This document shows, piece by piece, positions 2,664 through 39,895 of a DNA stretch of 64,000 nucleotides. Position numbers and translations under genes: made by a program. The notes beneath the pieces are model-generated. The model was not told where the DNA came from. It made no database searches and saw only the letters and a list, made by a program, of their open reading frames with translations. The stretch's first letter is position 1, and the number at the start of each line of letters is the position of its first letter. Origin of the DNA: Alphaproteobacteria bacterium (GTDB lineage: Bacteria; Pseudomonadota; Alphaproteobacteria; JANSWW01). The stretch is from the NCBI GenBank assembly GCA_024743275.1, contig JANSWW010000007.1, positions 151,162-215,161 on the forward strand, given 5' to 3'.

Positions 2664-3998
2664 TCAGGCCAGCGCGGTCTTGCTCGGGCGGGAGCGGAAC
2701 AGGATCAGGGCGATGATCCCCATATTGGCGAAGTTCCACAGGATGCCGTTGATGAAGGCGAGCTGATAGCTGCCGGTCAGATCGAAGACCAGGCCCGAGA
2801 GCCAGCCGCCCAGCGCCATCCCGATCACGGTCGCCATCATGACCAGGCCGATCCGCTGGCCCGCCTCGCGCGCCGGGAGGTATTCCCGGATGACCACGGC
2901 ATAGCTCGGCACGATCCCGCCCTGGGACAGGCCGAAAATCAGGCTGACCACATAGAGCGAGACCAGCCCGTCGAAGGGGATGTAGAGGAACAGCGCCATG
3001 CATTGCAGGGCGGAGCCGAGCAGCAGCGTCTTCACCCCGCCGATATGGTCGGCCAGAAGGCCGAACAGCAGCCGGCTCGCGACACCGCCGGCCAGCATCA
3101 GCGAGAGCATCTCCGCGCCCACCGCCACGCCATAGCCGAGATCGGCGCAATAGGCGACGATATGGACCTGGGGCATCGACATGGCGACACAGCAGGCGAC
3201 GCCGGCGAAGATCAGCAGCCATTGCAGCATGGCGGGCGATAGGCCGGCGTTGACCGCGGGGGATTCCATCGCCGCCTTCACCTTCTCGTCGGTCTCGGTC
3301 AGATGCGGCGCCTTGCGCAGCAGGAACAGCGACAGCGGAATCATGGTGACCAGGGTGATCACCCCGATCATCTCATAGGCCGCCCGCCAGCCCTCGGCGT
3401 CGATGGCGTCGCGCAGGAAGATCGGCCAGACCACCCCGGCGAGATAGTTGCCGCTGGCCCCGGCGGCGATCGCGATGCCGCGGCGCTTCTTGAACCAATG
3501 GGAGATATCGGCGACCAGCGGGCCGAAGCCCGCGGCCGTTCCCAGGCCGATCAGGACTCCCTGACAGACCGACAGGAACCAAAGACTCTCCGCGCCCGCG
3601 GCCAGGAAATGGCCGCCGCTGATCATGAGGCTGGCGAGGATCAGCACCGGGGTGACCCCGAACCGGTCGACAAGATGCCCCATCGCCACATTGCCGAAGG
3701 CGAAACCGAGCATGGTGGCGGTGTAGGCGAGCGAGGCTTCCGCCCGGGTGGTGCCGAAATCCTGCTCGACGCTGGGCATCGCCAGGATGATCGCCCACAT
3801 GCCGACGCTGCCGATCGTGGCCACGGTCAGCGACATGCACAGCCGGAACCACGCATAGGGGCTGTCCAGAACGGCGCTGGGGTCGCCGGCGTGCCGATGG
3901 GGCTGTCCTGGGTCGGCGGTCACGAAGGGCCTTCTGTCGCAAGGAGTTGATGAAAGTCTTGGGAAAGTTGTCTTTGATCCCGTGAGGATCAGAGCCAT
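2664..3998 (-). CDS. MFS transporter (12-TM, oxalate/formate antiporter-like); start codon uncertain, could be as far in as 3836
   Basis: Long hydrophobic ORF with MFS-like helices and a central loop containing KKRRG. The N-terminal ~50 aa are non-hydrophobic, so an internal Met (MSLTVAT...) is an alternative start. Confidence 0.6.
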
Positions 3999-4552: not shown

Positions 4553-5250
4553 GGGCCAGCCCGAGCCTGAACCACCTCACCGATCTGGTCCTGTATCGCG
4601 ACGGGCTCGTCCTCGTTCTCAACAAGCCCGCCGGCATCCCGGTCCATGCGGGTCGTGCCGGCGGCCCCAATCTGGAAGATGGCTTTCCCAGCCTGACCTA
4701 CGGCATTCGCCATGTCCCGGCCCTGGCCCATCGGCTCGACCGGGACACAAGCGGCTGCCTGGCCCTCGGCCGGCATCCCAAGGCGCTCAAGAAGCTCGGT
4801 AAGCTGTTCCGCGAGGGGCGGGCCGAAAAGACCTATTGGGCCCTGGTCCGGGGCGTGCCGGTGCGCGAGAGCGGCGTCATCGACGCGCCCCTGCTCAAGG
4901 TCAACCGACGGACCGGCTGGACCGTGAAGGTCGATCCCGCGGGCAAGGCCGCCCGGACCCGTTGGACGCTGAAGGGCAGCCGTGACGGCATCAGCTTTAT
5001 CGAATGCCATCCGGAAACCGGCCGGACCCATCAGATCCGGGTTCATCTCGCCCATCTCGGACTGCCGATCCTGGGCGACGTCGCCTATGGCGGGAATGCA
5101 TCCGACGGGCCCCTGGCGCTGCACGCCCGGCGGCTGGTCCTCCCGCTTGCCGCCTCCAAGCCGACGGTCGACGTCACGGCCCCGCCGCCGGAGGCTTTTG
5201 CAATTAGAGCAACCACGGTTCTCTCAGGCATAGTATTGCGAGAGTTTTAG
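4528..5250 (+). CDS. RluA-family RNA pseudouridine synthase (no S4 domain); TTG start; the 3' end runs into the low-GC insertion
   Basis: [14 protein letters not shown] catalytic-Asp motif plus [12 protein letters not shown]. The last ~15 codons are AT-rich, unlike the rest of the gene. Confidence 0.75.
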
Positions 5251-7133
5251 GTTTTAAATAAGTCTTCTATATCATCATCAATACTAGAATTATCGCGTAT
5301 TTCTTTTTGGCACCAGTGTCTGACTGAATTCATTTCCTTATGGAAATTGTCGTTTATATCTTTGAACGCGCCCTCACAGTCAACCAGAATTCTCTCGATC
5401 TCGTTGTATAACTCTTCGTCAGATTCCGATAGTTCTTGTATATCTTCGCATCGAATCTTGCAGGCGCTATCCGAAAAACTGATTGTGATAGTTAACGGTT
5501 CATCGGACTGACCACGTTCCTGGTAATGATGGACGCTTTTGGCCGTTTGCTTGAGAAATTCGTGGAATATTTTTCCACTGTATGCTTGATATTGTTTCTT
5601 TCCAGAAATTCGAGATGCTATATGCAGAAGTGAGAATAGTTCATCATCAAATGAAAAAGACGTTATGCCTGTGTCTTTTCCAAATTCTTCAAAACAAATT
5701 GTAAATTGTAACTTGCTAAGTGCGTAATAAGGTTTTTCTGGGTTGCGTGATCTGCTGATAGGTTTGAGGTGCTTCTCGAATTGAGGTTCAACAAATTTTT
5801 TTACGAAAAGGGGGGGATTCATGGAGTAGCAGAATTTTGGAAAATCATCGAAATAGCGGTTTTTGAGCCTCTCCATGAATTTATCAATATGTTGGTTCTG
5901 ATAATAAATAAGTCCATATGCTGCAAAATACTCTTGAAAAGATCGGTGTAAAAATGTAAAATATTTTCCATCGCGCTGTATTAAATTGACGGACTCTGAA
6001 AAATCTCTAAGCGTTTTTTGTGGATCAACGTCTATTTTTGCAATTTTATTAGACTTCTGAATTGTTTCTAGAATATCTACCTCGGTAAATTCAATTCTCT
6101 GTTCCATATATGAAACTAGTGAAAAAACCGAGAAAGCATTCCTAAAAACATGAAAATCGAGTTCATTCACCTTCGTAAATTTTTCTTTCGTGCTGTTGTG
6201 CCAATTATAAAGCGCGATAAACGCATGATCATAAAAAATGTTTAGGCTATCAGATATAGTGCCAGTATCGCTAAATGTTAGGAGCATCATCATTGTGAGA
6301 AGTGGAGTTGACATAAGGCTTTTTTTACTCGAAAAGTCCTTTTTCATTATTTCTTTGAGAAATTCTCTTTTTGTTTTTTCGTGAAATGGTAGCTTTTCGA
6401 TTAAACTAATATTTTGATCTAAATTAAGTTTGCAACACTCGAATCCATTAAAGCCCGACCAAGAGTTGAATCTTTGATTCAGCCTACTTGATACGATGAA
6501 TCGACATTTTTGGAATTCACTTGAAATTTCAATAATTTCGTTTTCAACTCTGTGCTTCTTGTCTTCAACAATCTCGTCAAATCCATCTAGAATAAAAGTG
6601 AATTTTCCTATTCCCATTAGATGGCGAAATGTATCCTCATCTAGTTTACCGCTCTCAGATATTGTGGTGCGTGCTAGTGTAACCAACCCTGATCCTAGTG
6701 TATTTTCTGTTGAGAGATTATTGAGCATCCTCAGTTCAAGGAATATGGGAATTGTGTTTGTTTCTTCTAAAATTACATTCCATAAAAACCTCATGAATAT
6801 CGTTTTTCCTGCCCCACCATTTCCTTGTATTATGACGTTTTTGTTTTTTAGAATCTCATTTATAATTTCAGAGTCTGGGAGAATTGTGTCATTATTTTTG
6901 AAATTCAGGGGTATGTATATTTCATTAAGGCCTACATCGGAGTCTTTCTTTAAAAGTATTTTGATTTTGGTCGTCTTATTCTTGGTTCTTGCAACATAAG
7001 GCTTGAAGTCTTCAAATGCGGCAGTCCATTTTTTTCTAATTGTGGGCTGTAAATGAAGTGTAATTCGATTCCAGAGCTCCTTTACGGTTTCTATGGTTAA
7101 CTCAGCTGTATATTTTTCTGCGGAGAAGCTCAT
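5247..7133 (-). CDS. NACHT-clade STAND NTPase (bacterial NLR-like protein); candidate antiphage defence protein
   Basis: Walker A IIQGNGGAGKT and Walker B FTFILDGFDEI (the hhhhDGhDE NACHT signature), sensor-1 RFIVSSR, and STPLLTMMML (GxP-like NACHT motif). The ~95-aa N-terminal region and ~330-aa C-terminal region have no recognisable domain. An AAGGA Shine-Dalgarno sequence lies 11 nt upstream of the ATG. Confidence 0.8.
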   Translation of the reverse strand: MSFSAEKYTAELTIETVKELWNRITLHLQPTIRKKWTAAFEDFKPYVARTKNKTTKIKILLKKDSDVGLNEIYIPLNFKNNDTILPDSEIINEILKNKNVIIQGNGGAGKTIFMRFLWNVILEETNTIPIFLELRMLNNLSTENTLGSGLVTLARTTISESGKLDEDTFRHLMGIGKFTFILDGFDEIVEDKKHRVENEIIEISSEFQKCRFIVSSRLNQRFNSWSGFNGFECCKLNLDQNISLIEKLPFHEKTKREFLKEIMKKDFSSKKSLMSTPLLTMMMLLTFSDTGTISDSLNIFYDHAFIALYNWHNSTKEKFTKVNELDFHVFRNAFSVFSLVSYMEQRIEFTEVDILETIQKSNKIAKIDVDPQKTLRDFSESVNLIQRDGKYFTFLHRSFQEYFAAYGLIYYQNQHIDKFMERLKNRYFDDFPKFCYSMNPPLFVKKFVEPQFEKHLKPISRSRNPEKPYYALSKLQFTICFEEFGKDTGITSFSFDDELFSLLHIASRISGKKQYQAYSGKIFHEFLKQTAKSVHHYQERGQSDEPLTITISFSDSACKIRCEDIQELSESDEELYNEIERILVDCEGAFKDINDNFHKEMNSVRHWCQKEIRDNSSIDDDIEDLFKT

Positions 7134-7446
7134 TGGGCTGCGATCCTTAGAGTATGAATTCTAAATTTTTTATCAATACGAGCAAATATGACCAGAGATA
7201 CTTCAAGATGCAAGAAATATGTTGGTTTATAGAAAGCCTTGATAGAGAATCTTTCGGTTTGAGGTTGCTGCGGTGAGCATGCTTCCGTCACGTTGTTTTG
7301 CAGACTATCGTGTGGTGTGTCAGTGCGTACTGCAGGGGGTTTCTTGGCTAAAATGGCTATGCCGTAAACGACGTTTGACAGAGTTCATGTAAAGTAAAAT
7401 TTATGTAATAAGTTTTATTGAAGCCCTATTAAGAATTTTATTATTT

Positions 7447-12692: not shown

Positions 12693-13036
12693 CGTCCGGA
12701 CCCTAAGCCCTGGACCCATAATCGCTTGGCCGAGGGCGGTACTTCCCTCGCGTCGGCAACGGCAAGGATCTCGGCGATCGGTCCTCCACGGGGGCGATCG
12801 AGAGCCTCGTTTCCCCGTCCTTGATGGATGTCGCGTGCTCGTCAGCCCGGGCGATTGTGCCGTGTTTGCTTCGCCTCCCGACCCAGACATCGCCCCGTCC
12901 GATACAATCGGCTTGAGATGAGCCTATGCTAGCAATCTTCTGTTGAGCTGGATGAGTGGTATGCTCGCGATCCGAAGCTTGACACCACGCCCCTGCTCTG
13001 TTCGGCAGGCTCTTAAAGTTAATCTATAGGGGCTTT

Positions 13037-13672
13037 TTGATGTTTGATCAGTATTTGGCGGGGATTCTCGTTGCTTTCGGCGTCTTTATCATGGGGATGT
13101 TAAGCCCTGGCCCGAACATCATGTCGATCATCGGAACGTCCATGGCCGTGGGTCGTTCACAGGGCAAGGCCTTGGCCCTGGGGATCGCGAGCGGGTCGTT
13201 CATCTGGGGCACCCTTACGCTTTTCGGTCTGACCGCATTGTTGGCGGCTTATGCCGGCCTGTTGACGATCATCAAAATCGCGGGGGCGAGTTACCTGCTT
13301 TTTCTCGCTTTCAAGGCATTTTCGTCCTCGTTGAAGGGCAAATCGATGGAAGCGCAGAGCGTCAAAGTCGAAGGCGGAACCGCACGTTACTATCGTCGTG
13401 GCCTCTTGATCCAAATGACAAATCCGAAGGCTGCGTTCACTTGGCTGGCAATCTTGTCCATCGCGCTCGATCCGACAGCGCCTTTCTGGGTTGGAGGCGT
13501 TGTCGTGGCCGGAACGGGAGCCATCTCGATTTTCGGCCATTTGGCATATGCGATCGCGTTTTCGACCGCGCCCATGGTTCGTGGTTACCGCAAAGCACAG
13601 CGATTGATCGACGGAATGCTCGGGTCGTTCTTCACGTTTGCCAGCTACAAGATCGCGACCTCAAATCCATAA
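13037..13672 (+). CDS. LysE/RhtB-family amino-acid exporter
   Basis: LSPGPN motif near the N-terminus; ~210 aa with six hydrophobic segments. Confidence 0.8.
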   Translation: MMFDQYLAGILVAFGVFIMGMLSPGPNIMSIIGTSMAVGRSQGKALALGIASGSFIWGTLTLFGLTALLAAYAGLLTIIKIAGASYLLFLAFKAFSSSLKGKSMEAQSVKVEGGTARYYRRGLLIQMTNPKAAFTWLAILSIALDPTAPFWVGGVVVAGTGAISIFGHLAYAIAFSTAPMVRGYRKAQRLIDGMLGSFFTFASYKIATSNP

Positions 13673-13800
13673 TAGGCAGCGTGACCCTGGGCTCGGCGTG
13701 AAGACCGGCGAGAACACGTCAAGCCCGTTGCCGGTACTTCGGCGATATTGTCGGGCCGAGAGTCGAAGTCCGGCCTCGCCGCTAAACCAGACGTCACCAT

Positions 13801-32483: not shown

Positions 32484-33845
32484 ATGACCCTTCTCGGCCG
32501 CAGCCTGTCTGCAAAGCTCCTGATGCTGACCATCATCTTCGTGATGATCGGCGAGGTGCTGATCTATACGCCCTCCATCGCCCGCTACCGGATCGACTAT
32601 CTGAAGGACCGGTTGGACGCGGCCCATCTCGCGAGCCTCACCGTCGAGGCGGCGCCGGACGGGCGGGTGATGGACGAGCTTACCCGCCGCCTTCTCGGCC
32701 ATGCGGGCGTTTTGGCCGTCGACCTCTACCGCAACGATCAGGTGACCCACATGCTGGGCGAGGAATCGGGATTGCCGGTCGCCCTGGAGGTGGACCTCCG
32801 TTCTCTGCCCGCGCCGATCGCCATTTTCCAGGCCTACGGCCTTTTGTTTGACGCCTCGCCGGGTTTCCTCGCCGTCACCGGTGTTTCGCCGAAAAACGCG
32901 AATGTGCTGGTGAAGATCGTGATCGATCAGACCGATCTGCGCACCGGGATGATCCAGTACTCCTACCGGATTCTGTTGCTCTCCATCATCATCTCGCTGA
33001 TCACGGCGGCCCTGCTCTATTTCGCCCTGCGTTGGCTGATGGTCAGGCCGATCCGCCGGCTGACCAAAACCATGGTGAATTTCCGACGTCAGCCGGAGGA
33101 TCTGGTCGACATGCCGCAGATCGACCGCACCGACGAGATCGGCACGGCGATGCGGGAGTTTCGCTCCATGCAGCATGGCATCCGGGCCGCCTTACGCCAG
33201 AAGACCCGGCTCGCCACCCTCGGCACGGCGGTGAGCAAGATCAGCCACGATCTGCGCAATATGCTGGCCACGGCCACGCTCGTCTCGGACCGTCTGGCGC
33301 AAAGCGAGGATCCCCAGGTCAAGAAGGTGGCGCCGGTGCTCGTCCGGTCCATCGACCGCGCGGCCTCGCTTTGTGAGGAGACCCTGAACTTCACCATGGA
33401 AACGCCGCCGCTGACCAAGACCCGGTTCATGCTGAACGATCTGGTCGACGAGTTCGTGCAGGAGAGCCAGACCTCCGGCGGCCCCCTGACCGTGGTGAGC
33501 AAGGTGCCGCCCGGGACCATGATCGCCGCCGACCGCGATCAGTTTTCCCGCATCCTCTACAACATCCGGCGCAATGCGGCGAACGCCGGGGCGACCGAAC
33601 TGGTCGTCGGCGCGGAGGCGTCGGACGACCGGCTGGTCATCCATCTGATGGACAACGGGCCCGGCATTCCCGACCATGTCCGGGAATACCTCTTCCAGCC
33701 CTTCGCGCCGACGGCCACCGGGGGCAGCGGTCTCGGCCTCGCCATCTGCCGCGACCTGGTGATCGCCCATGGCGGGACCATCGAGCTCGCCGAGACGGGC
33801 GCGTCGGGCACCCATCTGCAGATCGTCCTTCCGTCGAAGATATAG
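32484..33845 (+). CDS. Sensor histidine kinase
   Basis: Two TM segments flanking a periplasmic domain, HAMP-like linker, H-box VSKISHDLRNML, G-box GGSGLGLAICRD. Confidence 0.75.
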   Translation: MTLLGRSLSAKLLMLTIIFVMIGEVLIYTPSIARYRIDYLKDRLDAAHLASLTVEAAPDGRVMDELTRRLLGHAGVLAVDLYRNDQVTHMLGEESGLPVALEVDLRSLPAPIAIFQAYGLLFDASPGFLAVTGVSPKNANVLVKIVIDQTDLRTGMIQYSYRILLLSIIISLITAALLYFALRWLMVRPIRRLTKTMVNFRRQPEDLVDMPQIDRTDEIGTAMREFRSMQHGIRAALRQKTRLATLGTAVSKISHDLRNMLATATLVSDRLAQSEDPQVKKVAPVLVRSIDRAASLCEETLNFTMETPPLTKTRFMLNDLVDEFVQESQTSGGPLTVVSKVPPGTMIAADRDQFSRILYNIRRNAANAGATELVVGAEASDDRLVIHLMDNGPGIPDHVREYLFQPFAPTATGGSGLGLAICRDLVIAHGGTIELAETGASGTHLQIVLPSKI

Positions 33846-33950
33846 GCCGGGAATGGAGGCCCTTCGCGAACCGCTCTACCTTATTGTTTTAGAGGCAAAT
33901 TCACCGACCATTCTGGAACATGAAGCGATTCAGAATGGTCGGATTTGGCT

Positions 33951-34823
33951 CTAACCGGCGTCGAAGAGCGCCTTCAGTCCTTCGCGATAGGTCGGATAGG
34001 CGAGCGTCACCCCGAGTTCCCGCTTGATCCTGGCGTTGTTCACCCGCTTGGATTCCGAAAAGAAGCTGCGGCCCATCGGCGTCATGCCGGCCTGTTCGAA
34101 GGGGGTCGGGGCGGGCGGTTCGACCCCCAGCAACGCGCAGGCATAGCGGATCGGGTCCCCGGTCGGGCAGGCGAGGTCGTCGGTGACATTGTAGATCGCC
34201 GACGGGTTGGGCTTGGCCATCGACGCGAAGAGCGTGCGGACGATGTCGTCCCGGTGAATGCGCCCGAAAACCTGGTTCGGTTTGTCGACGATCCTGGCTT
34301 GCCCCGCTCTCACCCGGTCGATCGGGCTGCGGCCGGGGCCGTAGATGCCCGACAGCCGGAACCGGTGGACCGGCGCGCCCGTGGTGCGGTGCAGATCGTG
34401 CCAGGCGCGTTCCAGAGCCAGCCGCACCCGGCCCTTCTGCGCGCCCGGCCGGCACTCGCTTTCCTCGTCGACCCAGAGTCCCCGCCGGTCGCCGTAGACC
34501 CCGGTCGTCCCGAGCCAGCCCACCCATCGGAGCTGGACGGCGATCCGGCCGAGATCGTCGCCGTGATGGTCGAGCACCGCGTCCCCGTCCGCATCCGGCG
34601 GGACGGAGGAGAGGATATGGGTCACGTCCTTGAGGGCGACGCCCGGATCGACCAGGGGATGGTCGCGATCGAAAAGATGCGGGTGGATACCGAGCGCCTT
34701 CAGTTGCGCGAGCTTTGCTTCCGACCGGGCGGTGCCGCTGACGGTCCAGCCCCGGGCGATGGCCTCCACCGCCAGCGCCTCGGCCACATATCCGACCCCG
34801 AAAATGAAAAGATGGTTCGCCAT
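33951..34823 (-). CDS. NAD(P)-binding epimerase/dehydratase-family (SDR) protein
   Basis: N-terminal IFGVGYVA Rossmann motif. Confidence 0.65.
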   Translation of the reverse strand: MANHLFIFGVGYVAEALAVEAIARGWTVSGTARSEAKLAQLKALGIHPHLFDRDHPLVDPGVALKDVTHILSSVPPDADGDAVLDHHGDDLGRIAVQLRWVGWLGTTGVYGDRRGLWVDEESECRPGAQKGRVRLALERAWHDLHRTTGAPVHRFRLSGIYGPGRSPIDRVRAGQARIVDKPNQVFGRIHRDDIVRTLFASMAKPNPSAIYNVTDDLACPTGDPIRYACALLGVEPPAPTPFEQAGMTPMGRSFFSESKRVNNARIKRELGVTLAYPTYREGLKALFDAG

Positions 34824-36339: not shown

Positions 36340-36416
36340 GGCCGCGAGGTAATCATAGCTTTCCGGCGCGATAAAGAGCGATTGCGCCGGTGTATCCGAT
36401 CGGGCACAAGGGCGCC

Positions 36417-37043
36417 ATGAGCAAGAACAGTCAAGACGCGAAAAAGCCCGTCCCGGACGCATCGGGGGACAGCATTTCCGAATCCAAGAAGCCGGAGGGC
36501 TCCGGCCTCGTGGACCTCCTGCCCCTGATCGTCTTCTTCGGAGTCTACGCGCTGGACGGGATCATGACGGCGACGGCGGCGGCGATGGCCGCGACCGTCG
36601 GCGTGGTCGCCTATGTCTACGCGAAGCATCGGGCCGTCCCGCAGATGGCCCTGATCAGCGGCGGTCTTCTGATGGTGTTCGGCGGGCTCACCCTGTGGCT
36701 CGACGACGAGATGTTCATCAAGATGAAGCCGACCATCGTGCTCGCCCTGTTCGCGCTGGCCGCGCTCGGCGGCCGGGCGGTGCATTGGAGCTTGTCGAAG
36801 ACCTTGTTGGGCGGCCAGATGCCGACGGTGGCCGATACGGTCTGGCGCAAGATCGACGGGCGGTTCGCCCTGTTCTACCTGGCGCTGGCCGCCTCCAACG
36901 AGCTTGCCTGGCGGTTCCTGAGCACAGACGCCTGGGTTACCTTCAAGGTCTTCGGGATCACCGCCGCCTCGGTGGTCTTCGTCTTCTCGCAGTTCCCGAC
37001 TCTCAAGCGGGCCGAAGAGGCGGCGGACACATTGTCAGAATGA
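36417..37043 (+). CDS. yciB: Intracellular septation protein A (YciB/IspZ)
   Basis: LLPLIVFFGVY... pattern characteristic of YciB; five TM helices. Confidence 0.8.
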   Translation: MSKNSQDAKKPVPDASGDSISESKKPEGSGLVDLLPLIVFFGVYALDGIMTATAAAMAATVGVVAYVYAKHRAVPQMALISGGLLMVFGGLTLWLDDEMFIKMKPTIVLALFALAALGGRAVHWSLSKTLLGGQMPTVADTVWRKIDGRFALFYLALAASNELAWRFLSTDAWVTFKVFGITAASVVFVFSQFPTLKRAEEAADTLSE

Positions 37044-37051
37044 TCAATACA

Positions 37052-37080
37052 TTGACCATTGCGCAGAAGTCTTTATATTG
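37052..37080 (+). promoter_or_regulatory. Sigma70-like promoter TTGACC-N17-TATATT driving the NYN gene
   Basis: Read from the sequence immediately after the yciB stop; canonical 17-nt spacing. Confidence 0.4.
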
Positions 37081-37090
37081 ACTTCATCCG

Positions 37091-37146
37091 CCCCACGGCA
37101 GTACGTCAGTTTCCTAGCGATCTTGAAACTGGCAGACCCCGTGGGG
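37091..37146 (+). promoter_or_regulatory. 56-nt imperfect inverted repeat (ccccacgg...cagtttc / gaaactg...ccgtgggg) in the 5' leader, ending 7 nt before the NYN start codon
   Basis: Outer 8-bp and inner 7-bp arm pairs are perfect reverse complements. Confidence 0.45.
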
Positions 37147-37152
37147 CTTTTC

Positions 37153-37848
37153 ATGTCAAAAGTTGCAATTCTCATTGATGGTGGCTTTTTTCTGAAACGC
37201 TTGGCTTCACTCAAGCCGGATGCAGATCTCAAATCAGCAGAAACAGTAGCAAAATTAGTTGACACTCTCGTTCGAAGTCATTTGGATCAGCACAATAAAA
37301 TTGTTCACAACAAAAACCAGTACTCTCTTCTATATCGCACCTTTTTCTATGATGCTCGCCCGTACCTAAAGCGTGGTCATCTTCCAATTAGTAGAAAGTC
37401 TATCGATTATAGTAAGACGCCTGAAGCTATATTCCGAAACGATCTGATAAATGTGCTGCGCCGACGCTCCAGTCTGGCCGTAAGGCTTGGTGAGGTGCGA
37501 TTGGAAAGGTCGTGGATTTTGAAGGAGGGCGCGCAAAAAGCCCTAATTAATCGAGAGATATCTGTCGATGAACTGACAGATGATGATTTCGCCCCAGGCC
37601 TTCGACAAAAGGCGGTCGACATGCGCATCGGTCTCGATATCGCTTCCCTTACCCTCAAACGGCAAGTCGATACAATTATCCTGGTAACCGGAGATTCTGA
37701 TTTTGTCCCCGCAGCCAAACTCGCCCGTCGGGAGGGGGTGAGGGTCATCCTTGATCCCCTTTGGCGCGACGTCAGCGAGGACCTGTTTGAGCACATAGAC
37801 GGCGTGAAGAGCGGCTTTGCTCGACCCAAAGCTAGAAAAAAGCCTTAA
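37153..37848 (+). CDS. NYN-domain (LabA/DUF88-like, PIN-fold) ribonuclease-type protein on a low-GC (~48%) islet
   Basis: VAILIDGGFF N-terminal motif and ILVTGDSDFVPAAK acidic motif, typical of NYN domains; sharp drop in GC relative to the flanking yciB and fabI. Confidence 0.7.
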   Translation: MSKVAILIDGGFFLKRLASLKPDADLKSAETVAKLVDTLVRSHLDQHNKIVHNKNQYSLLYRTFFYDARPYLKRGHLPISRKSIDYSKTPEAIFRNDLINVLRRRSSLAVRLGEVRLERSWILKEGAQKALINREISVDELTDDDFAPGLRQKAVDMRIGLDIASLTLKRQVDTIILVTGDSDFVPAAKLARREGVRVILDPLWRDVSEDLFEHIDGVKSGFARPKARKKP

Positions 37849-37851
37849 GTC

Positions 37852-38673
37852 CTACTCCGGCGCCTGCTCCCGGTTGGGATGCGGGATGGCGGTGACGTTG
37901 AAGCCCGCATCCACATACATCACCTCGCCGGTCACCCCGGCCGAGAGATCGCTGGCGAGATAGAGCGCGGTGTTGCCGACCTCGTCGAGGCTCACATTGC
38001 GGCGCAGGGGCGCGTTGTTCGCCGTGTAGCGATAGGTATGGCGCGCATCGGCGATGGCGGAGCCGGCCAGCGTTTTCATCGGGCCGGCGGAAATCGCGTT
38101 GACCCGGATGCTGTCGCCGCCGAGATCGACCGCGAGATAGCGCACGCTCGCCTCCAGCGCGGCCTTGGCGACACCCATGACATTGTAGTTCGGCGTCACC
38201 CTGTTGGCCCCGAGATAGGTCAGCGTCACCAGGCTGCCGCCCTGGGTCATCAGCGGCCGGCAGTGGCGCGCCAGCTCGGTGAAGGAATAGCAGGAGATCG
38301 ACAGCGAATGCTGGAAGTTGTCGCGACTGGTGTCGAGATAGCGGCCCTTCAGCTCGTTCTTGTCCGAATAGGCGACCGCGTGCAGCACGAAGTCGACCCG
38401 GTCCCAGCGGTTGCCGAGCTGTTCGACCATGCCGGCGATGCCGTCTTCCTCCGACACGTCGCAGGGAAAGGTGAGGTCGCTGCCTACGCTCTCCGCCAAC
38501 GGTACGACCCGTTTCGCGAAGGCGTCGTTCTGGTAGGTGAAGGCGAGCTCCGCCCCGTGGCCGGCGAGCTGCTTCGCGACACCCCAGGCGATCGACTTGT
38601 CATTGGCCACGCCCAGGATCAGCCCACGCTTACCGGCCATCAGCGGTCCGGGAGTGGGGCGCTTGTCGTCCAT
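37852..38673 (-). CDS. fabI: Enoyl-[acyl-carrier-protein] reductase (NADH) FabI
   Basis: GKRGLILGVANDKSIAWG and catalytic Y/K (YNVMGVAKAALE) motifs; start could be 38673 or 38640. Confidence 0.85.
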   Translation of the reverse strand: MDDKRPTPGPLMAGKRGLILGVANDKSIAWGVAKQLAGHGAELAFTYQNDAFAKRVVPLAESVGSDLTFPCDVSEEDGIAGMVEQLGNRWDRVDFVLHAVAYSDKNELKGRYLDTSRDNFQHSLSISCYSFTELARHCRPLMTQGGSLVTLTYLGANRVTPNYNVMGVAKAALEASVRYLAVDLGGDSIRVNAISAGPMKTLAGSAIADARHTYRYTANNAPLRRNVSLDEVGNTALYLASDLSAGVTGEVMYVDAGFNVTAIPHPNREQAPE

Positions 38674-38677
38674 CGCC

Positions 38678-39895
38678 TCAACCATTGTAGCGTTGCATGG
38701 CGAGCACGGCGTTGGTACCGCCAAATCCAAAGCTGTTGGACAGCGCCAGGTCGATCCGACGATCCTCGCGGGCCTTCAGAAGCGGCGCGTCCCCGATTTC
38801 CGGATCCACCGTTTCGATATTGATCGATTCGGCGAGGAAGCCGTTGTTCATCATCAACAGCGTATAGATCGCCTCGTGAACGCCGGCCGCCCCCAAGGCA
38901 TGGCCAGACAGGGACTTGGTCGAGCCGATCTTCGGCAACGCCTCCCCGAACACGTCGCGCAGGGCGGCGATCTCGCGGGTGTCGCCGACCGGCGTGGAGG
39001 TGCCATGGGCGTTCACATACTGAACGTCTTTCGGGTCGAGGCCCTGGAGCGCCAGCTTCATGCAGCGTACCGCCCCTTCGCCGGAGGGCTGGACCATGTC
39101 GTAACCGTCGGAGGTGGCGCCATAGCCGACGATTTCGCCGTAGATCTTGGCGCCCCTGGCCTTGGCGTGCTCCAATTCTTCGAGAACCAGGGCGCCGCCG
39201 CCGCCGGAGATCACGAAACCGTCCCGGTCCGCGTCATAGGGGCGGGAGGCCCGTTCCGGCGTGTCGTTGTACTTCGAGGACAGCGCGCCCATGGCGTCGA
39301 ACAGGACGGACATGGTCCAGTGCACCTCCTCGCCGCCGCCGGCGAAGACGATGTCCTGTTTGCCGAGCTGGATCTGCTCCACGCCGTTGCCGATGCAATG
39401 GGCCGAGGTGGAACAGGCGCTGGAGATCGAATAGTTGACGCCCTTGATGCCGAAAAAGGTCGAAAGGCAGGCCGACGTCGTCGAGGACATGGTGCGCGGC
39501 ACCATATAGGGGCCGACTCGTTTCGGACTCTTTTCCCGGGCGGTGTCGAAGGCGAAGAGCATATTCTCGGTCGACGGTCCGCCGGAGCCGAAGATGAGTC
39601 CGGTCCGTTCGTTCTTGATGTCGGATTCCTCGAGGCCCGAATCGGCGAGCGCCTGTTCCAGCGAGAGATAGGCGTAGCTGGCGACCGGTCCCATGAACCG
39701 CAGTTTCTTGCGGTCGATCAGGTCCTCGAGATTGACGTCGACCGCGCCATGCACATGGCTGCGGAAGCCCATTTCCTTGTATTCCTCGGCAAAGGAAATC
39801 CCCGAGCGCCCGTCATAAAGCGCACTGGTCACCTCCTGGGCGTTGTTGCCCAGGGAAGACACGACACCGAGGCCGGTGACAACGACCCTTCTCAT
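38678..39895 (-). CDS. fabB: 3-oxoacyl-ACP synthase I (KAS I, FabB)
   Basis: Thiolase fold with active-site Cys ([12 protein letters not shown]) and His/His motifs; sits directly downstream of fabA. Confidence 0.85.

Follow-up and report, generated by a model that had tools for sequence, protein, structure and literature searches.

The module between yciB and fabI

The 64,000-nucleotide stretch of alphaproteobacterial DNA considered here (contig JANSWW010000007.1, positions 151,162 to 215,161 of the forward strand), which as a whole is called the window, carries a compact module between yciB and fabI. Its content (37044–37851) is essentially a promoter, an RNA hairpin and a single real open reading frame (ORF), which encodes a putative ribonuclease of the NYN family. 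The same hairpin element lies upstream of every copy of this NYN gene that was compared, in otherwise unrelated contexts. The features of the locus, in window coordinates, are:

37086..37152, + strand: conserved structured RNA; covariance model R1 (see below) gives 85.6 bits, E = 1.4e-24 on the window
37052..37079, + strand: sigma70-like promoter, TTGACC, 16-nt spacer, TATATT; 10 of 12 consensus matches
37153..37848, + strand: gene for a putative NYN/LabA-like PIN-fold ribonuclease of 231 aa, from ATG to TAA; Pfam NYN; no Shine-Dalgarno (SD) sequence
37044..37851, + strand: inserted accessory module of ~808 bp, from the yciB stop to the fabI stop; defined by empty sites in relatives and by GC content
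36390..37043, + strand: yciB (intracellular septation protein A), left flank, outside the module; Pfam IspA, E = 2.7e-50
37852..38730, − strand: fabI (enoyl-ACP reductase), right flank, outside the module; Pfam adh_short_C2, E = 1.2e-88

A sequence-only reading of the window had delimited a low-GC islet at 37040–37860, and the composition bears this out: GC content is 48.2% there, compared with 65.0% in the flanking 6 kb and 63.8% in the whole window. The NYN ORF itself has 47.8% GC and a GC3 of 46.6%. The flanking genes had likewise been named correctly, since Pfam identifies yciB on the left and fabI, fabB and fabA on the right, the latter three all on the opposite strand. The yciB stop codon occupies 37041–37043 (+) and the fabI stop codon 37852–37854 (minus strand); fabI is convergent with the NYN gene, and 3 nt separate the two stop codons. 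Possibly, the left edge of the module reaches a few codons into yciB, to about 37028, where GC begins to drop.

Relatives for a comparison of this junction were picked through YciB. In one of them (L089; YciB listed at 82% identity), there is no insert and the stop codons of yciB and fabI overlap (CTAA, L089 5578–5583), which means that the module was gained or lost at a point where no intergenic DNA exists and that it is accessory. Similarly, in L090/L091, the gap between yciB and fabI measures 23 nt and holds no insert. A module is present at the same junction in L002, with an NYN protein 76% identical to that of the window and 53% GC. Judged by housekeeping proteins, L002 and L089 are at much the same distance from the window (FabI 87 and 86% identical, GST 87 and 89%, respectively); presence or absence of the module varies among close lineages. 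In other genomes, the GC content of the NYN gene is below that of its flanks in 62 of 82 loci (mean difference −6.7 points), and only one locus exceeds +3. These data support the earlier proposal that the islet is foreign, that is, a horizontally acquired accessory module. A protein identical to the NYN protein of the window is found on a record from an alphaproteobacterial metagenome-assembled genome (MAG).

A conserved hairpin RNA

The RNA starts with a 5′ tail, AUCC (37086–37089), and is predicted to fold into two helices. In the GC-rich outer stem, P1, positions 37090–37098 pair with 37139–37147; in the inner stem, P2, positions 37105–37113 pair with 37125–37133 and enclose a terminal loop (37114–37124). 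Between the two helices, an internal loop sets CAGUAC (37099–37104) opposite AGACC (37134–37138), an AGUA/GA pattern that is sarcin-ricin/loop-E-like. The U-tract UUUUC (37148–37152) follows, and then the ATG. The hairpin 37090–37147 has a predicted energy of −32.6 kcal/mol (z = −5.4), which none of 200 shuffled sequences equals. An imperfect inverted repeat in front of the ATG and the missing SD had both been recognized in the sequence-only reading; the span has to be corrected to 37090–37147, and the distance to the ATG to 5 nt, not 7. The inverted repeat can also be extended (TTGAC...GTCAA, 37078–37098 with 37139–37159), in which case the pairing spans the ATG. This extended pairing would form only in transcripts begun upstream of the predicted start of the module, e.g., by read-through from yciB.

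Throughout the family, the layout is AUYC, GCCCCUUGG, CAGUACG, the 5′ strand of P2, a loop (or an extra hairpin, P3), the 3′ strand of P2, CCGAYCC, CUUGGGGC, and UUUUU. In an alignment of 27 sequences, 89% of the cells of the two-helix structure are paired, and seven of the nine P2 pairs have changed on both sides. The covariation score is 0.379, compared with 0.07–0.11 when the pairing partners are slid by 1–3 columns, and 0 of 500 shuffles reach it; the covariation is seen again in a further set of loci that was collected apart from the first and fitted to the same model. In total, more than 130 loci besides the window share the hairpin, with covariation. G-U pairs are frequent in the alignment, which points to the sense-strand RNA. 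The internal loop is close to invariant: in 83 distinct sequences, the AGUA bases are counted 81 (A), 79 (G), 82 (U), and 82 (A) times, opposite G (76) and A (82), followed by a variable third base. There is also a variant class of internal loop, with GAGAGUA opposite CGAAAUC.

The covariance model R1 was built from the 27-sequence alignment and run on 83 NYN loci, which represent at least 10 phyla. In 83 of 83 it finds one copy of the RNA immediately before the NYN gene, with scores of 37–92 bits, and no other match below E = 0.01 in the 709 kb searched. The only duplication among these 83 loci is seen in L056, a Poriferihabitaceae MAG, where two tandem copies (3780–3858 and 3868–3950) precede one NYN gene.

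The sequence-only reading had suggested that a partner might be hidden in the leader, and the leader has indeed turned out to be a conserved structured RNA with covariation. Rfam 15 has no match to it at E ≤ 10 on 36800–38000, and none at gathering score over the whole window; in the literature searched, no description of the hairpin RNA or of an RNA-NYN module was found. The NYN gene alone would be ordinary; what is unexpected is how strictly the RNA is coupled to a poorly understood RNase family in different phyla, phages, and plasmids. A hammerhead ribozyme, as could be suspected from CUGA...GAAA, was considered and rejected, since the topology is that of one linear hairpin and no Rfam ribozyme matches.

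Promoter, U-tract, and spacer

The −35 box, TTGACC, occupies 37052–37057 and the −10 box, TATATT, 37074–37079; the promoter begins 8 nt past the yciB stop, and transcription is predicted to start near A37086. The sigma70-like promoter that the sequence-only reading assigned to the gene is thus present, with a spacer of 16 nt where 17 had been given, and its position is conserved across loci. To score it in the family, −35/−10 pairs were placed so that transcription would start at the conserved A of AUYC, in the 71 loci that could be measured. At this fixed distance from the RNA, the mean is 8.9 of 12 matches, compared with 5.0 in controls, and 60 of the 71 loci reach at least 8, compared with 1% of shifted positions. 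On the other side of the hairpin, at least five T occur within the 8 nt after P1 in 63 of these loci. By its sequence, the element is a promoter-proximal hairpin that resembles an intrinsic terminator (P1 plus U-tract).

From the stem to the start codon, the median distance is 24 nt, and an SD-like run occurs in about half of the loci. A gap of this size is too short for a second promoter, and the NYN gene must therefore be expressed by read-through. The stem abuts an ATG without SD only in the window (5 nt) and in L002 (6 nt), which have the only spacers of 8 nt or less. In these two, spacer and SD have been lost, and the translation of read-through mRNA is for this reason probably further reduced. 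Complementarity between the 5′ strand of the hairpin and the spacer with the ribosome-binding site (RBS) shows a weak excess (mean z = −0.83; p ≤ 0.05 in 22% of loci). Several loci, among them L006, L024, and L026, have G-rich runs close to the RBS (e.g., GGGGGCGG) that could pair with the 5′ tail and the 5′ strand of P1 (AUCCGCCCC); this could reflect SD sequestration or merely G-rich SD sequences.

The NYN protein

The gene product matches Pfam NYN (PF01936) with E = 1.2e-11 and 45.8 bits, above the curated cutoff of 24.2, and contains both ILIDGGFF and LVTGDSDF. The NYN gene of the sequence-only reading is hence upheld in fold, motifs, and Pfam family, at a length of 231 aa instead of 232. 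A longer ORF that begins with TTG at 37078 and runs through the hairpin was rejected: the start MxK(V/A)AILIDGG aligns in 28 family members, and the upstream extension is translated hairpin. Over its full length, the protein corresponds to phrog_5783 (E = 4.4e-75), a family of unknown function. The AlphaFold2 (AF2) model has a predicted local distance difference test score (pLDDT) of 91, and its best Foldseek matches, both with probability 1.00, are the LabA-like protein 2qip (VPA0982) and the NYN domain of MARF1 (5yaa). In the family alignment of 28 sequences, 60 residues are invariant, among them D9, D67, D156, and D183, and D181 is nearly so. The predicted structure is a PIN-like alpha/beta fold with conserved acidic residues, and the protein is a putative metal-dependent ribonuclease.

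Other searches returned little. With the family profile, a sequence search of the PDB gave a sole match, Dps (E = 0.045), which is spurious; NCBIfam gave only TIGR00288, below threshold; and PADLOC gave only weak matches to NYN and to HEC-09. The latter (PDLC04163; E = 1.5e-3, 16.2 bits) is partial and aligns residues 152–193 with positions 103–144 of a 203-position profile. No conserved protein neighbour that could be an antitoxin was found: besides the Res and Mod genes described below, no flanking ORF cluster occurs in more than nine of the 83 loci.

Distribution of the RNA-NYN pair

The closest homologues, 57–76% identical, come from many phyla and include proteins of Alpha- and Gammaproteobacteria, Binatia, Acidobacteriota, Latescibacterota, Chloroflexota, Nitrospinota, Nitrospirales, Spirochaetia, and Magnetococcales. 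The genomic surroundings of these copies are unrelated to one another; the L003 module, for instance, is inserted within an operon for leucine catabolism. Many carriers (among L005–L084) bear the isolate prefixes RHO, COS, or SB or are labelled Poriferihabitaceae. These look like metagenome bins from sponges, which hints at an ecological enrichment. The subfamily is large: it counts more than 8000 protein clusters at 90% identity, and a profile search of 1.84 billion representatives returned 409 clusters (50% identity) at E < 1e-30.

Full-length homologues with 39–50% identity are also carried by 165 plasmids, 134 of them from Campylobacter and others from Xanthomonas, Aeromonas (pAsa5), and Thermus, and by 65 phage records, of which 48 are Stx2a-converting phages; conjugative plasmids are among the carriers. 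Eight of these distant loci (39–46% identity) were examined, from phages of Burkholderia, Moraxella, Streptococcus, and E. coli and from plasmids of Xanthomonas, Aeromonas, Campylobacter, and Thermus. All eight have kept the order promoter-like site, long hairpin, U-tract, SD, and NYN gene. The AGUA...GA loop is retained in four (phiE202, Xanthomonas, Moraxella Mcat4, and Javan85), whereas it is missing from those of E. coli, Thermus, Aeromonas, and Campylobacter, whose hairpins have diverged in sequence.

The positions of these NYN genes are typical of accessory, exclusion, or conflict genes. In the lambdoid E. coli phage ev099 (L086 2380–3358), the NYN gene, with a diverged hairpin-terminator leader, lies between a cI-like repressor gene and N, the position that rexAB has in lambda. 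In the P2-like phage phiE202, it is found between a toxin–antitoxin (TA) pair and the integrase gene, in the Streptococcus phage Javan85 it adjoins the integrase gene, and in Thermus it lies between a helicase-related gene and an N6-methylase gene. Of 5426 complete E. coli genomes, 74 contain a full module of the ev099 type; many of these are O121, and the annotation there is only “NYN domain-containing protein.” The toxin or defence role that the sequence-only reading had mentioned as possible fits the phage and plasmid contexts, as well as the Res-Mod contexts described below.

Res-Mod loci and a search starting from the RNA

Clustering of flanking ORFs revealed that in 22 of the 83 NYN loci a protein of ~1000 aa with ResIII and endonuclease parts (Res) is encoded upstream, and a type III-like methyltransferase of ~960 aa (Mod) directly downstream. 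In the window, tblastn finds no Res or Mod gene.

The linkage was also approached from the RNA, by searching metagenome contigs for exact, ungapped matches to the 17-mer CGCCCCTTGGCAGTACG. Among the 104 loci obtained, about half of the matches are due to chance and lack the 3′ half of the element, and about 56 loci contain it in full. NYN follows in roughly 44 of these 56, with a median identity to the window protein of only 44%; these include an NYN subfamily of 270–290 aa with a 57-nt variant of the RNA. One of the 56 loci has an XRE-like protein, and a few have truncated NYN genes. The linkage is near-obligate from NYN to RNA and about 80% from RNA to NYN. In about 35 of the 56 loci, the order is Res-[RNA-X]-Mod, followed by Ppl-like ATPase or Menshen genes, an arrangement that by analogy resembles the “embedded gene” slots of Hma systems. 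In L103, L130, L144, and L136, the same promoter and RNA lie inside Res-Mod loci beside Ppl-like ATPase or Menshen (NsnA/NsnB) genes.

A possible RNA-plus-RNase conflict module

Tentatively, and with a probability of roughly 0.4, we read the pair as a self-contained RNA-plus-RNase module that would work, by analogy, like a type III TA or abortive-infection unit. The observations behind this reading are the anatomy of the module, the conserved and covarying RNA with its strict linkage to NYN, the fixed promoter, the U-tract, the mobility, and the defence-type contexts, along with the intact acidic residues of the NYN fold, the layout retained in the eight distant homologues, the accessory status, and the tandem RNA copies of L056. 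The near-consensus sigma70 promoter would fire at about 37086 and give rise to a hairpin RNA of ~65 nt. In vivo, P1 and the U-tract would terminate most transcripts, thereby releasing a free small RNA, and a minority of read-through transcripts would encode the NYN endoribonuclease. From the succession of a strong promoter and a terminator, the short RNA is expected to be the major product and NYN the minor one. The abundant RNA would then bind and restrain NYN, as a pseudo-substrate or an antitoxin, via its AGUA/GA internal loop and its AUC-containing terminal loop; judged from their sequence conservation, these loops are a likely protein-binding surface. The RNA might also be an autoregulatory operator for NYN. 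Once the supply of RNA was lost, through phage transcription shut-off or loss of the element, the RNase would be freed, with presumed toxicity and a presumed defence phenotype. A strong promoter with a terminator behind it is also the arrangement of ToxIN, whose main product is the short RNA.

Several points weigh against this reading. The features that define type III systems, tandem RNA repeats and a toxin of the ToxN fold, are both absent. Conservation of the RNA sequence far exceeds that of the protein in many lineages, with an identical 17-mer where NYN is only about 44% identical; in this respect, the RNA is unlike the fast-evolving ToxI-type antitoxins. A few loci have the RNA without NYN: in L103 (4519–5165), L130, and L144, an ORF6N/PDC-S05 gene is found instead, and in L136 (4604–4675) the RNA lies directly before the Mod methylase gene. 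The RNA can thus persist, and perhaps function, without NYN. Finally, HEC-09, the one NYN candidate from a comparable embedded position that has been assayed, and a weak relative of the window protein (E = 1.5e-3), gave no phage defence (bioRxiv 10.1101/2024.01.29.577857).

In an unlikely variant of the module reading, the RNA would mimic the universally conserved sarcin-ricin loop (SRL) of 23S rRNA and act as a decoy antitoxin for an NYN toxin that targets the ribosome. If the RNA imitated an invariant RNA of the host, its conservation far beyond that of its protein partner would be explained. If this were true, the module would represent a new class of type III TA or abortive-infection system, in which the antitoxin is a single-hairpin RNA and the toxin is PIN-like, and which in at least 10 phyla is spread through phages, conjugative plasmids, embedded slots of restriction-modification loci, and solo chromosomal islets.

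Somewhat less probable than the conflict module, although possible, is a purely cis-acting leader, i.e., an attenuator, 5′ stabiliser, or operator that keeps downstream expression low, possibly with feedback by NYN, and has no role in trans. Such a leader would account for a terminator placed between promoter and ORF with a spacer too short for another promoter, and persistence of the RNA before ORF6N and Mod genes fits a generic expression-control element. The weak excess of complementarity between 5′ strand and RBS points in the same direction, and RNase E and Regnase-1 provide precedents for autoregulatory leader hairpins. However, a near-consensus promoter followed by a terminator would be an odd route to low expression, and the two loops are conserved at the nucleotide level across phyla, beyond the needs of a plain terminator. 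Moreover, no conserved antiterminator or alternative helix competing with the terminator was identified in the loci compared. The structure-controlled, conditional translation proposed in the sequence-only reading, with a hairpin abutting the ATG in place of an SD, describes the window and L002 and is improbable as an explanation of the element: only two of 71 loci have this geometry, spacers have a median length of 24 nt, and SD-like G-runs are present in about half of the loci, so occlusion cannot explain the conservation, and the conserved U-tract points to transcription termination instead. Start-codon occlusion is probably a lineage-specific extra that adds to the dampening in these two loci.

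It is also doubtful that the RNA belongs to the Res-Mod system (type III-like or Hma-like), as a promoter-terminator junction of its embedded-gene slot, and is joined to NYN by linkage only. The order Res-[RNA-X]-Mod, where X may be NYN, ORF6N, or nothing, recurs in both the RNA-selected and the NYN-selected loci (about 35 of 56 and 22 of 83) and argues for such an origin; against it, NYN modules that stand alone, at a distance from all Res and Mod genes, keep the RNA in the window, in phages, and on plasmids, and the RNA is retained in 83 of 83 NYN loci whatever their context. Least probable by far is an action of the inverted repeat as DNA, either as a recombination or transposition site, such as an attC-like hairpin, or as the terminator of yciB. 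The module contains no recombinase and is placed precisely between two stop codons, which would be compatible with a DNA-level role, and a hairpin with a T-run right after yciB could end yciB transcripts. But the hairpin is internal to the module, with the promoter upstream of it at a conserved position, its numerous G-U pairs would become A-C mismatches if the opposite strand folded, and a repeat search found no direct repeats flanking the module. An attC site or transposon end was rejected on these grounds (internal position, strand specificity through G-U pairs, no flanking repeats), and a yciB terminator because it is NYN, and not yciB, that the element accompanies into unrelated contexts.

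Comparison with known systems

The conflict module that we favour has its nearest model in the type III TA systems ToxIN, CptIN, and TenpIN, in which one promoter serves a noncoding RNA, an intrinsic terminator, and an endoribonuclease gene, and which are small mobile modules of plasmids, phages, and chromosomes with a link to abortive infection (PMC3401426, PMC5086642). Read from the sequence, the window has the same single promoter, RNA, and terminator-like P1 and U-tract between RNA and NYN. In contrast to these systems, the toxin candidate is NYN/PIN-like according to Pfam and Foldseek, and not of the ToxN/CptN/TenpN (AbiQ-like) fold; furthermore, the RNA is one long hairpin instead of an array of 34- to 36-nt repeats, and neither Tandem Repeats Finder (TRF) nor a repeat search detects tandem repeats. 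Without repeats and without a ToxN fold, the module is not a member of a type III TA family.

HEC-09 is an NYN protein encoded between helicase-type and methylase genes, and many relatives of the window protein are similarly flanked by Res and Mod, in some cases with an ATPase gene next in line. The window protein differs in that it matches the HEC-09 model only weakly and partially (E = 1.5e-3, 16 bits). The searched passages of the HEC-09 paper (bioRxiv 10.1101/2024.01.29.577857) mention no RNA.

Among NYN proteins of known structure, the LabA-like VPA0982 (2qip) and MARF1 (5yaa) are, as stated above, the best structural matches, at an identity of only 13–16%. In the window protein, Pfam aligns residues 126–200 only, and the remainder is family-specific. 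As in autoregulated RNases (the rne 5′ untranslated region; Regnase-1), an RNase gene is accompanied by a conserved structured element in its own transcript. Regnase-1 is itself NYN-like and cuts a stem-loop of the mRNA that encodes it. The elements of RNase E and Regnase-1 are, however, not promoter-proximal terminators, and their genes are not mobile modules.

The consensus of the sarcin-ricin/loop E (bulged-G) motif is AGUA/GAA, as in the SRL of 23S rRNA (AGUACGAGAGGACC). The internal loop has in common with it a near-invariant A-G-U-A on the 5′ strand and G-A-N on the 3′ strand, a likeness of sequence pattern only. It differs from the SRL in that there is no GAGA tetraloop, a covarying P2 being in its place, and in that the adjoining position is C-C and not a C-G pair.

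To our knowledge, stand-alone bacterial NYN proteins have no established function. One NYN subfamily travels with an RNA partner or leader that is conserved from Alphaproteobacteria to Chloroflexota and has a variant form in Streptococcus phages. If the RNA controls or neutralises the RNase, this would be a new and widespread RNA-protein conflict module, and an annotation dead end would become testable; complete copies are available in cultured strains besides the 74 complete E. coli genomes. An RNA partner may also explain the inactivity of an NYN candidate cloned for defence assays. In addition, the “embedded gene” slots of Res-Mod and Hma-like defence systems would gain a conserved non-coding part.

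Other features of the window

A second, larger low-GC islet is located at ~5000–7200, where GC falls to 33–37% over about 2 kb. At 5247–7133 (−) lies the gene for a protein of 628 aa in which Pfam recognizes a NACHT STAND NTPase domain (E = 3.3e-7); it has no PADLOC match and may be a bacterial NLR-like defence gene. Lesser GC dips, to about 55%, occur at 33800–34100, at about 12850–13800, and at about 51050.

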